Assembly: GCA_004524445.1 (NCBI GenBank)
Contig: SDNP01000021.1
Coordinates: 1-55,458 of the forward strand
Origin: Candidatus Thorarchaeota archaeon
Lineage (GTDB): Archaea > Asgardarchaeota > Thorarchaeia > Thorarchaeales > Thorarchaeaceae
Length of the DNA stretch: 55,458 bases
Direction of reading: 5' to 3'
Position 1 is the first letter of the stretch, and each line of letters starts with the position of its first letter. The position numbers and the translations under genes were made by a program. A model generated the notes under the pieces. It did not search any database, was not told the origin of the DNA, and saw only the letters and a program-made list of their open reading frames with translations. This document shows, piece by piece, positions 1-3,053 of this stretch.

Positions 1-162
1 AAAAGAGATTCGGAGGTGAAAAGAATTAGCAAAGACCGGATGAGGGCCATCTATGAGCGCATGACAAAGGATCGTGCAGCCCTCGAATTACTGTCAATTG
101 GCATAGTTAGTGGCATTGCCACAGTAGTGCAGCCGCCTTGTGAGGATCCTAGCCCGTTCTAG
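1..162 (+). CDS. small ORF (or 3' end of an ORF) ending ...VVQPPCEDPSPF
   Basis: Frame 1 is open from base 1 to TAG at 160-162. GGAGGTG SD at 12-18 precedes ATT (25) and ATG (40). The C-terminus resembles the PEPF ending of the downstream micropeptides. Confidence 0.5.
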   Translation, partial: KRDSEVKRISKDRMRAIYERMTKDRAALELLSIGIVSGIATVVQPPCEDPSPF

Positions 163-287
163 CGTAGCCTGGACGTGTGTGGGTTCTCAAGCAAAGCTAG
201 CCCTATTGCTATGTGATTCATGTCCGAATCATTGCAGCTAGTATGGGGAGCCTAGGTTATCACAATCACGGAAGGAGGAGAAGAACC

Positions 288-329
288 TTGGAGCCCGATC
301 TTGGAGCACCATCACCTGAACCATTCTAA
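288..329 (+). CDS. 13-aa micropeptide (M)EPDLGAPSPEPF, copy 1 (TTG start)
   Basis: GGAGGAG SD at 274-280; same peptide as 411-452 with only synonymous differences. An in-frame ATG at 243 is an alternative start. Confidence 0.7.
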   Translation: MEPDLGAPSPEPF

Positions 330-410
330 GAAAAAAGACGGAGAAAACCGAAAACAAACGAGAGTGACACCCGAATAAAAAATCGAACAAGAAGGAGGAT
401 GAAAGAAAAA

Positions 411-452
411 ATGGAACCTGATTTAGGAGCCCCCAGTCCCGAGCCTTTCTAA
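411..452 (+). CDS. 13-aa micropeptide MEPDLGAPSPEPF, copy 2
   Basis: GGAGG SD at 394-398; ATG...TAA; synonymous-only divergence from copy 1. Confidence 0.7.
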   Translation: MEPDLGAPSPEPF

Positions 453-490
453 GAAATATTTGAATAAAACAAAAAAAAGGAGAAAACGAA

Positions 491-742
491 ATGATAGGAA
501 ACGCAACAGAAACAGCATTCGCAAATTTGATAGCACCTGAGAGCGGAAGAGCAGTTGACCCCTTTGCTGACCCAGAAGTTGTACGCTTGACTGCGGTAAA
601 TCTGGAATTAGCAGTGAAGAATTTAATGACTGCTTCAACTCCACCTGAGTGCATAGTCCTCACTGCAGACATCTGCTCACATAGGCTTGTCGCGAGACCC
701 ACCGCAGATGGCGACGTGAGTGTACTAGTGTTCGACGAATAG
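491..742 (+). CDS. 83-aa hypothetical protein, possibly a truncated roadblock/LC7-like fold
   Basis: AAGGAG SD upstream; apparent beta-beta-helix-beta-beta-beta pattern. The fold call is inference. Confidence 0.65.
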   Translation: MIGNATETAFANLIAPESGRAVDPFADPEVVRLTAVNLELAVKNLMTASTPPECIVLTADICSHRLVARPTADGDVSVLVFDE

Positions 743-925
743 CCAGTACTACGACACTGGAAGAGTCTGTATCCGGGGAATATTCCCCGGAAACTGGGCT
801 TGAAGGAGGCTATATAGTGAACGCAGAACATATGAATAACAGGCAAGTGCTTGAGAGGCATTGGTCCTATACAAAATGCCGTAAGCTGAGTATATTGCTT
901 GATGTAGACATATGGAGAAGCCGAT

Positions 926-2368
926 ATGACAGATGTATCCTCGGAAGTCAGTATTCAAAAGGAGGAAGCTTTGACTGATTTTGAAGAAGATATGTTGCCA
1001 GATGAATATGACCAAGCCGAGAAAAATGAGCAAGATTCGCAACAATCGGACAGCGGTCTGCTGTATTCATTGAAACTTATTTTATCAGCGAAAAATTATG
1101 GTGTGTATTTGATTACCTCATGGATTTTTGGGTCTATTGTATATCTTCAAGCATATCTTAATTTGTATCTAAGGGCGCTGGGATGGGATTTCATAGTAAT
1201 GGGTGCTGTTCTGTCAGTACTGGCAGTTTTCGCATCCGTAATGCGATTAATTGGAGGACATGTAGGAGATATCACGAACAGAAAGAACCTCTCGGTCGTC
1301 GCCATGTTACCGATATCAGTTTTCTATTTCATCATCGGTGTCTTTGTTGACCCATTAATGATTGTTATCGGATTGATAGTGTATCAGTCTCACGAAATTG
1401 CTAGGAGCGGCTCATCCGCCTATATTCTAGAAAACACTCCGAAGAAGCACAGTGGTCTGGCAATGTCGCTATTCAATGCGGGGAAGGTCTTCGGCATTGT
1501 CACCTTGGTTATTTTCGGAGCCTCGGTCACTATTCTAGGTTTTACGGAGTCATTCAGACTAATCTTCTTGGTTGCGAGTTTTATTCTATTCTTGTGTGCG
1601 GTTGCTAGGGCAAAGTATCTTGAGTATGATGGGCAAGCTTCTAATGATTTTCAAGATAAGTGGTCACTGAAACGGTTCTTACAGGAAAATAAAAGGGCTG
1701 CAAAATTATTATTGGCTTCAGTCCCAGGCCTCCTTACCATCGTGATTATAGATGGCATCAGTGATTCGTTTTTCAAATTTGGTGCTTTGATATATGCCAA
1801 TGAAGTACTAGCCATTGACATTTCCGGGATCAATATGATACTACTTGTATACTCGGTGCTTTCCGTTCCTCTCCTTTTCAAACTCGGACGAGTATCAGAC
1901 AAAAGTGGCATAAGAAGAGCAGCATTGATTGTATATCTGCTAATGCCAGTGAGTGCTGCACTGCTGATACTTGCCCCAATTATTACATTCTGGGCTCCCC
2001 AAGCGTGGATATTGAATGCAAACAGCACATATCCTGGGCTGGGAGCCATCTTCTCAACGGCATTCATAGCTATAGTAATGAAATACCTAAACGATACGCT
2101 ATGGTATATGGTCCTGCTTACCCTGATCCAGAAGAGCCTTCCAAAGAAGGATACTGCAAAAATACTCTCCATTTTTTGGTTTACAGTATATGTCACTTCA
2201 TCAGTAGGCCCGTTGATTGCAGGAGCCATATTCGAATATCTAAGTCCTGCTTTTCTGTTTGGAATTATGCTTGTACTGAATCTCATAATTTTGATTTCAA
2301 TACAGATGGGTTCCTTTGCAGAGAATAGCGCTTCAGCGAATGGAAACCAAAAAGATGTTGTTGAGTAG
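926..2368 (+). CDS. MFS transporter with acidic N-terminal extension
   Basis: About 12 hydrophobic segments; motif-A-like GGHVGDITNRK and GRVSDKSGIRR. Confidence 0.85.
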   Translation: MTDVSSEVSIQKEEALTDFEEDMLPDEYDQAEKNEQDSQQSDSGLLYSLKLILSAKNYGVYLITSWIFGSIVYLQAYLNLYLRALGWDFIVMGAVLSVLAVFASVMRLIGGHVGDITNRKNLSVVAMLPISVFYFIIGVFVDPLMIVIGLIVYQSHEIARSGSSAYILENTPKKHSGLAMSLFNAGKVFGIVTLVIFGASVTILGFTESFRLIFLVASFILFLCAVARAKYLEYDGQASNDFQDKWSLKRFLQENKRAAKLLLASVPGLLTIVIIDGISDSFFKFGALIYANEVLAIDISGINMILLVYSVLSVPLLFKLGRVSDKSGIRRAALIVYLLMPVSAALLILAPIITFWAPQAWILNANSTYPGLGAIFSTAFIAIVMKYLNDTLWYMVLLTLIQKSLPKKDTAKILSIFWFTVYVTSSVGPLIAGAIFEYLSPAFLFGIMLVLNLIILISIQMGSFAENSASANGNQKDVVE

Positions 2369-2411
2369 AATTCAAAAAGCCTCATGATTAGGACAACGTG
2401 GACATGATTTG

Positions 2412-3053
2412 ATGGCAGACATCGAGAAGGCAACAAAAATCTTGGAGATTTTGCAAGAGAGATATGAAGATGCTCCACAGACCTATCTCAACTGGGAGAA
2501 TCCCTATCAGCTGCTTATTGTGACAATTCTCTCTGCGCATACCACTGATGCAGCAGTCAATTCTGTCTCTAAAGACCTATTCGAGAAGTATCCTACTCCA
2601 AAAGACTTGGCAAATGCCGATGATGAAGATATCATTGATATAATCAGAAGTGTGGGAACCTATAATCGAAAAACGCGCTATATCAAGGAAACTGCAGAAA
2701 TGATGGTAGATGAGTTCGATGGAGAAGTCCCACAGAATATGGAAGATCTTGTAAGATTCACAGGAGTAAGCCGGAAGACTGCTAACGTTGTTCTTCAGAC
2801 TGCATTCGACATCAATGAAGGCGTTGTGGTTGACACACATGTTGGGCGCGTTACCAAGCGTTTGGGCCTCACTGAAGAGAAATCTGCCAAGAAAATCGAG
2901 CAGGACCTAATGGATTTGCTGCCCAAAGATGACTGGGATGAATGGGCACGAATAATGGGAGCTCATGGAAGAGATTTGTGTAATTCAAGAAGTCCTGATT
3001 GCCCCAATTGCCCCGTTAATCACTTGTGCCCATCTGCAGAATTAGAACAATAA
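2412..3053 (+). CDS. nth: endonuclease III (HhH-GPD, 4Fe-4S)
   Basis: LLIVTILSA, GVSRKTANVV HhH, VDTHVGR, C-X6-C-X2-C-X5-C. Confidence 0.95.
   Translation: MADIEKATKILEILQERYEDAPQTYLNWENPYQLLIVTILSAHTTDAAVNSVSKDLFEKYPTPKDLANADDEDIIDIIRSVGTYNRKTRYIKETAEMMVDEFDGEVPQNMEDLVRFTGVSRKTANVVLQTAFDINEGVVVDTHVGRVTKRLGLTEEKSAKKIEQDLMDLLPKDDWDEWARIMGAHGRDLCNSRSPDCPNCPVNHLCPSAELEQ

Follow-up and report, generated by a model that had tools for sequence, protein, structure and literature searches.

Recoded twin micro-ORFs in a Thorarchaeota genome indicate selection on a proline-rich micropeptide, a candidate trans-acting tail ligand

The described systems that come closest to the locus reported here involve very small open reading frames (ORFs) or short protein tails. 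MgtL, the leader of Salmonella mgtA, and TnaC of E. coli are leader peptides of the proline-codon or arrest type, whereas plant LITTLE ZIPPER and the Id proteins are microProteins or tail mimics that titrate a partner; in Archaea, sP26 and sP36 of Methanosarcina mazei are small regulators. ComS, SHP and Phr are RRNPP peptides, and bytA is a biarylitide gene of five codons; such minimal precursors illustrate that small size alone is no bar to a ribosomally synthesized and post-translationally modified peptide (RiPP). The C-terminal tip (SSB-Ct, DDDIPF-COOH) of SSB, the bacterial protein that binds single-stranded DNA, docks into hydrophobic pockets of many partners (PMC5872125, PMC3632105). Here we describe a locus of an Asgard archaeon, Candidatus Thorarchaeota archaeon (GCA_004524445.1; genome G000), in a 55,458-nt stretch of contig SDNP01000021.1 that we call the window. 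It contains two micro-ORFs, B1 and B2, that encode the same 13-residue peptide with largely different codons:

274..280, + strand: ribosome-binding site of micro-ORF B1, GGAGGAG, 7 nt before the TTG at 288
288..329, + strand: micro-ORF B1, TTG start, 13 codons plus TAA, peptide (M)EPDLGAPSPEPF; the extra, distal copy (TTG GAG CCC GAT CTT GGA GCA CCA TCA CCT GAA CCA TTC TAA)
394..398, + strand: ribosome-binding site of micro-ORF B2, GGAGG, 12 nt before the ATG
411..452, + strand: micro-ORF B2, ATG start, 13 codons plus TAA, peptide MEPDLGAPSPEPF (ATG GAA CCT GAT TTA GGA GCC CCC AGT CCC GAG CCT TTC TAA)

B1 and B2 differ at 9 of 12 internal codons. Of the 36 internal bases 12 differ, and none of these differences alters a residue; they include Leu CTT/TTA and Ser TCA/AGT. 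An earlier reading made from the DNA letters alone (the original prediction) had reported identical peptides from recoded DNA at these positions and a shared element, GAAGGAGGA, in front of both ORFs; the sequence is as it described, with the element at 271-279 and 391-399. The peptide was never kept in 200,000 trials of 12 random base changes. For two independent back-translations with the codon usage of the genome, a divergence of 8.0 +/- 1.6 codons, or 9.0 +/- 2.0 bases, is expected; the observed divergence is as large as that, so similarity between the copies at the DNA level is gone. The peptide EPDLGAPSPEPF is found exactly twice in the 2.79-Mb genome, and identical peptides arise from the ORF frame of the + strand alone, the remaining five frames differing or holding stops.

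Both ORFs are kept in the sister species G001 and in three independent metagenome contigs, where every further change within an ORF is again synonymous. The spacers have collected substitutions as well as indels, and indels are found nowhere else. The recoded twins thus point to selection on the peptide and not on the DNA or RNA, and come near to an experimental proof of it. Two findings that the original prediction had said would speak against it were looked for, and neither turned up: the relatives are free of frameshifts, and the repeat does not trace to a longer ORF in another frame or on the other strand. A 207-residue antisense ORF (238-861, minus strand) that spans B1, B2 and the downstream gene C is not kept open in relatives and was dismissed as an artefact of the opposite coding strand. 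Public gene calls on the same DNA list neither the micro-ORFs nor the upstream gene A. Judged from these comparisons, B1 and B2 are two real genes for one acidic, proline-rich peptide.

The micro-ORF is found throughout the Thorarchaeota family to which the window genome belongs. The checkable loci are 33 of the gene C family, from 16 genera, that have enough upstream sequence. All 33 carry an ORF of 11-15 codons with a GGAGG-type ribosome-binding site, located 33-102 nt upstream of gene C on the same strand. The proposal that purifying selection acts on a micropeptide below the cut-offs of ORF callers is strongly supported by this recurrence of a gene that the gene calls miss. The 39 micro-ORFs found start mostly with ATG (34/39), stop mostly with TAA (31/39) and specify 33 distinct peptides. 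Proline makes up 32% of the residues in these peptides and Asp plus Glu 22%, and the net charge averages -2.3. Their consensus is P-[DE]-P-[ET]-P-[WF] and their end is always Pro-[Trp/Phe/Tyr]-stop, with the following residues counted back from the C-terminus:

Position -1: W, F or Y (19, 12 and 2 of 33)
Position -2: Pro (33/33)
Position -3: E, T or D (27/33)
Position -4: Pro (25/33)
Position -5: D or E (24/33)
Position -6: Pro (23/33)

Substitutions are distributed very unevenly along the micro-ORF. When related species were compared in ten genus-level groups, codon differences in the last six codons numbered 17 synonymous vs 11 non-synonymous, and those in the remaining codons 5 vs 53. The original prediction had expected non-synonymous divergence near zero; this holds for the six C-terminal residues and between copies in one genome, and fails for the N-terminal half, which evolves fast between species. 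Constraint falls on the C-terminal hexapeptide as well as on ORF length and the ribosome-binding site, with fast turnover of the N-terminal half. A constrained end with a variable flank is the pattern of a short binding motif.

Within genomes of two genera, the twin peptides match or nearly match over their whole length. In genus g1 (the window genome and G001) the DNA of the twins is saturated and their peptides are identical; the TCA and AGT serine codons can be interconverted only via a non-serine codon, which would fit divergence followed by re-matching. The three species of genus g10 have twin ORFs that are 91-96% identical within species vs 62-82% between species, while the flanks are orthologous by position (0.87-0.88) for L016/L022, the sole species pair with alignable flanks. 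This is concerted evolution confined to the ORF. The twin peptides are identical in two of the three species and differ at one residue (Cys/Thr) in the third, G033. A whole-peptide match within genomes that is reached by two routes argues that one specific peptide is needed at raised dose. Of the two copies in the window, B2 is probably ancestral because its upstream context, GGAGGATGAnAGAAAAA-ATG, equals that before the single micro-ORF of genus g6. In locus L035 (genome G020), about 100 nt upstream of the micro-ORF, there is a decayed extra copy (...IPDPLPW, after GAAGGAGAA) whose stop is gone and whose frame now continues into the intact micro-ORF; it suggests repeated gain and loss of extra copies.

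Upstream of the twins lies a second gene, A, whose protein ends in the same type of motif:

12..18, + strand: ribosome-binding site of gene A, GGAGGTG, 6-7 nt before the ATY start in all 22 loci listed
25..162, + strand: gene A, an unannotated 45-residue protein, ISKDRMRAIYERMTKDRAALELLSIGIVSGIATVVQPPCEDPSPF and stop, with an apparent ATT start

Gene A is present in 51 of 59 family genomes, with one marginal match at most outside the family. It is highly conserved, carries an invariant Cys seven residues from its end, and ends QPPCEDPxP[F/Y] (CEDPSPF in the window). In the AlphaFold model, residues 3-25 form a helix (pLDDT, the per-residue model confidence, about 82) and the 20 C-terminal residues are floppy. 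In the loci examined, the start codon is apparently ATT, ATC or ATA in nearly every genus and ATG in G011. In three loci (L019, L024 and L029) an in-frame stop lies between a GTG inside the ribosome-binding site and the ATT; because this excludes the GTG there, ATY is the only consistent start. Gene A of this Asgard archaeon therefore looks as if it began at a non-AUG codon (AUY) that is conserved. No ORF of at least 100 residues elsewhere in the genome ends in PxP[FWY]-stop. The motif is in this sense private to the locus, so its reader should be dedicated and is likely to be locally encoded. Covariation between the A and B tails at position -3 is not significant once relatives are collapsed (3/20 matches, reached by 2,502 of 20,000 shuffles; 6/30 and 205 of 20,000 before collapsing).

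The window is the start of its contig (C53), and upstream context was read from a second contig, C54. The two contigs overlap by 149 nt over gene A (window 1-149 equals G000:C54:18851-18999), and many other assemblies of the family are also broken at or beside this gene (G209, G200, G154, G234, G002, G222, G228 and G203). These breaks may reflect strain-level polymorphism flanking a conserved core.

The A and B tails resemble the SSB-Ct in form: both are short acidic stretches ending in Pro-Phe with a free carboxylate on a flexible tail (here ...SPEPF and ...CEDPSPF). By analogy, the micropeptide may share its mode of action, with an aromatic anchor, acidic residues and competition of ligands for one pocket. 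The resemblance goes no further than form, since here the carriers are a free product of 11-15 residues and the tail of a 45-residue protein rather than the tail of an OB-fold SSB, the prolines of the micropeptide alternate, and its last residue is usually Trp. Membership in the SSB-tail system itself was rejected: the SSB paralog in the window ends in a basic ...RRRETRW, and the larger ORFs of the genome lack the PxP[FWY] end.

The third gene, C, follows the twins:

479..482, + strand: ribosome-binding site of gene C, GGAG, 8 nt before the ATG at 491
491..742, + strand: gene C, an 83-residue protein specific to the Thorarchaeota family, with a candidate minimal roadblock/longin-like fold

Gene C occurs in 35 of 36 family genomes, and all 24 genomes from the phylum's other families lack it; its homologues are labelled Candidatus Thorarchaeota. 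A profile of C run against 1.84 billion cluster representatives returned only 8 clusters at E <= 1e-10, all from the same family. Two long profile matches (P0039 and P0040) are DUF11/DUF7927 repeat proteins and were set aside as spurious. Pfam and NCBIfam gave no match for C, including none to Pfam Robl_LC7.

The structural model of C (pLDDT 83) has a long helix packed on a three-stranded sheet. Almost all of its top Foldseek rows in the PDB are roadblock/LC7 or longin proteins (LAMTOR2/3, MglB, dynein Robl, TRAPP subunits and an Asgard roadblock protein), with E-values of only 0.04-0.3. The exhaustive aligner VIA scored longin/roadblock (Z 3.9-5.3) and PAS (5.6) as a tie, and structure matches in the ESM Atlas were to roadblock and longin clusters at a template-modelling (TM) score of about 0.45-0.5; a feature search in the same atlas was uninformative (scores <=0.77). 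Recurrence in three libraries makes C possibly roadblock/longin-like on the strength of its model. Roadblock and longin domains bind peptide segments of partner proteins, and the order of elements in the roadblock/LC7 fold is alpha-beta-beta-alpha-beta-beta-beta. C, a small alpha/beta protein, has members of these families (LAMTOR2/3, MglB, Asgard roadblock 7yh1) as its top structural matches, but it differs from them in its weak scores, in a reduced beta1-beta2 hairpin and in the lack of an adjacent small GTPase gene.

Some features of the C sequence are recorded here in their own right. Residues 23-29 form a loop, VDPFxDPE, that hardly varies and is similar to the peptide motif. A Cys54/Cys62/His64 triad is conserved in most genomes, not all; the idea that it forms a metal site completed by the invariant Cys of A was dropped, as the triad is lost in several genomes with and without A. 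Inspection by eye for covariation between the terminal W/F of B and the alignment columns of C gave nothing evident.

Beyond gene C, the neighbourhood contains a candidate RNA hairpin, a transporter of the major facilitator superfamily (MFS) and, on the other side of gene A, two winged helix-turn-helix (wHTH) proteins:

772..791, + strand: hairpin TCCGGGGAATATTCCCCGGA, perfect and GC-rich, in the interval from gene C to the MFS gene
926..2368, + strand: MFS transporter gene, 480 residues (Pfam MFS_1, E = 1e-23)
Downstream of the MFS gene: EndoIII-like protein, GT4 glycosyltransferase, SerRS and SufD
G000:C54:15960-18551 (L046): a divergently transcribed pair of genes for wHTH proteins (474 and 361 residues)
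Upstream, on C54: archaeoflavoprotein AfpA and Mer-like F420 oxidoreductases

In 24 of 34 loci, the first 130 nt or so after the C stop include a perfect stem of 6 bp or more, which in 17 of them starts 14-37 nt after the stop. The hairpin sequence differs by locus, and between the window genome and its sister species the stem is kept while the loop differs. The element looks like an RNA stem-loop that would be either a 3' end or a processing site. The MFS gene adjoins C in five of the six loci seen in wide view and is missing in G025; a PDB sequence search with it gave no match. The wHTH pair shows weak HTH_24/MarR/AsnC-type matches with large uncharacterised remainders, and is syntenic with A-B-C in 6/6 genera in the wide view. 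GNATs are also among the neighbours. Gene order is broadly conserved in the Thorarchaeota family, which makes adjacency weak evidence.

How might so small a product work? Genes A, B1, B2 and C lie on one strand, each with its own ribosome-binding site and with no terminator-like T-stretch between them, and we infer that the micro-ORFs are translated. Our preferred reading, held tentatively and with somewhat less than even confidence, is that the micropeptide acts in trans as a free C-terminal tail that competes with the A tail for a partner encoded at the locus, perhaps C. The working part would be the free end, an extended P-[DE]-P-x-P-aromatic-COOH, and the peptide would amount to a stand-alone copy of the A tail (CEDPSPF-COOH). 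It would occupy the tail-binding site of its partner, for which C is the first candidate, ahead of the MFS transporter and the divergent wHTH regulators, and so compete with or substitute for protein A. The variable N-terminal half would tune a lineage-specific fit, and a second gene copy would raise the dose. Such a competition would tilt towards the peptide, given that A has a weak AUY start and B a strong ribosome-binding site with AUG (two copies in the window). Like the microProteins, the micropeptide is a very small product that copies an interaction module of a larger neighbour and could compete with it; unlike them it has only 11-15 residues and copies a linear tail instead of a domain.

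Several observations support a product that works in trans. Matched twin products at raised dose fit a trans-acting product better than a cis element, and a terminal aromatic that varies between W, F and Y fits a pocket anchor better than a chemically modified residue. Other observations weigh against this reading. A nascent-peptide mechanism acting in cis would equally select amino acids, and the micro-ORF is always in the 5' region of C. Four genomes of genera g4, g13 and g14 (G014, G019, G004 and G013; loci L037-L040) keep the micro-ORF and C and have gene A nowhere in the genome, which means that competition with A is not the whole function; in one of them, G014, the micro-ORF ends ...VPVPGEDPLPF, close to the A tail. 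A never ends in W and B mostly does, so one tail is no interchangeable copy of the other. On all the scores given above (E 0.04-0.3, Z <=5.6 and tied with PAS, TM about 0.5), C has a weak fold assignment. A complex prediction for C with A scored 0.01, which gives no verdict and bears neither way on binding. The recoded twins and the contrast between paralogs and orthologs nevertheless shift the balance, on present sequence evidence, towards a trans-acting product.

Among the alternatives, a leader acting in cis is unlikely. Here a Pro/Asp/Glu-rich nascent chain with a Pro-aromatic end at the stop codon, responding to a metabolite, to proline-tRNA supply or to aIF5A, would delay the ribosome in elongation or termination and thereby tune the translation or message stability of C and possibly of the MFS gene. 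Such a leader would account for the constant position of the micro-ORF on the same strand 33-102 nt upstream of C, for the 32% proline content, and for a length of 11-15 codons that fits wholly in the ribosome exit tunnel. Nascent-peptide selection also conserves residues while the DNA drifts, and gene A, which likewise ends Pro-aromatic-stop, could carry the same termination signal. The micro-ORF parallels MgtL and TnaC in being a tiny proline-rich ORF that carries a ribosome-binding site of its own and precedes a small gene and a transporter gene; it differs in that the micropeptide comes without an alternative RNA structure or terminator and has a conserved C-terminal aromatic, matching twins and a tail repeated on a neighbouring protein. 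The B region (260-520) folds no better than shuffled sequence (z = +0.92), nor does the A-B spacer (z = -0.24). That spacer was considered as a conserved RNA and rejected: its length (about 125 nt) is conserved and its sequence is not across genera, and the window copy folds no better than its shuffles. None of the 34 B-to-C spacers, which are A-rich and of variable length (33-102 nt), contains a run of at least five T, no terminator-like site was found in window 1-1000, and an Rfam scan of window 1-3000 gave one chance-level miRNA row only. The stalling leader suggested in the original prediction loses ground here, with RNA switch and terminator both lacking. A cis leader also has difficulty with a second copy 160-275 nt upstream, behind another ORF, that is identical or nearly so in two genera. 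The prolines alternate (PxPxP), whereas ribosomes stall on PP runs; TAA is the usual stop, and the N-terminal half varies between species, yet is identical between twins in g1 and in two of three g10 species.

Export of the peptide, whether as a signal or ligand without modification or as a minimal RiPP precursor, strikes us as doubtful. The peptide would leave the cell through the MFS transporter and be sensed by the wHTH regulators or another receptor, with the N-terminal half behaving like a pherotype. Peptide-signal and RiPP loci typically have tiny precursor genes in several copies, next to a transporter and divergent regulators; the N-terminus differs between species while copies match within a genome, which resembles peptide-receptor co-evolution, and the assembly breaks at or near gene A are compatible with strain-level polymorphism. 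RRNPP and minimal RiPP genes are similar in being tiny, sometimes multi-copy, placed by a regulator and transporter, and variable by lineage, but the micropeptide has no signal sequence or nearby processing or tailoring enzyme and is acidic, not hydrophobic. It is also highly hydrophilic and leaves no room for a leader. Pfam and NCBIfam scans, which covered about 12 kb upstream (on C54) and 7 kb on the downstream side, gave no radical-SAM, YcaO, ATP-grasp, P450, lanthipeptide (LanM/LanKC) or peptidase gene, so the inspection of upstream genes suggested with the original prediction, for radical SAM, ATP-grasp and peptidase genes, yielded none. The upstream flavoprotein and luciferase-like genes were considered as RiPP tailoring enzymes and discarded, NCBIfam identifying them as AfpA and the Mer-like F420 oxidoreductases. 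The MFS gene, besides being missing from the G025 locus, is separated from C by the hairpin, and its adjacency counts for little where gene order is conserved anyway. A RiPP core, one of three roles offered in the original prediction, is disfavoured by the lack of tailoring enzymes nearby and by a terminal residue that is not fixed but varies W/F/Y; a signalling or ligand peptide is the best fit of the three, and as a role it is a candidate only. At the far end of the scale, a non-coding DNA or RNA element or a chance pair of ORFs is extremely improbable. Saturated DNA with 12/12 synonymous differences, conservation of the peptide in 33 loci with no conservation of the other frames and strand, the lack of an Rfam match or fold signal, and indels confined to spacers leave this reading effectively refuted.

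A further reading is a self-specific ligand, in which the invariant C-terminal Pro-aromatic anchor would dock to a dedicated receptor and the fast-evolving N-terminal half would give lineage specificity, with selection keeping that half matched between copies. The ligand would be either exported by the MFS transporter or retained as an intracellular linear-motif switch on a roadblock/longin-type platform. We regard this reading as speculative and, taken as a whole, unlikely.

Genes of 11-15 codons escape annotation pipelines, and to our knowledge very few are conserved across a whole archaeal family. Nothing similar was found in Pfam, NCBIfam or Rfam, nor in the literature, although the searches were not aimed at the motif itself. 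The locus gives a short list of candidate partners: the 45-residue A with the same tail, the 83-residue C, the MFS transporter and the two regulators. Two further overlooked features, a gene started by AUU, AUC or AUA and a position-conserved hairpin, are flagged with it. Asgard archaea are the closest prokaryotic relatives of eukaryotes. If the micropeptide is a free short linear motif, it would represent an unusually minimal form of protein-interaction control. Were the self-specific ligand exported, it would be the first peptide communication signal described in Asgard archaea; were it intracellular, the locus would display eukaryote-style short-linear-motif logic in the form of a stand-alone gene.

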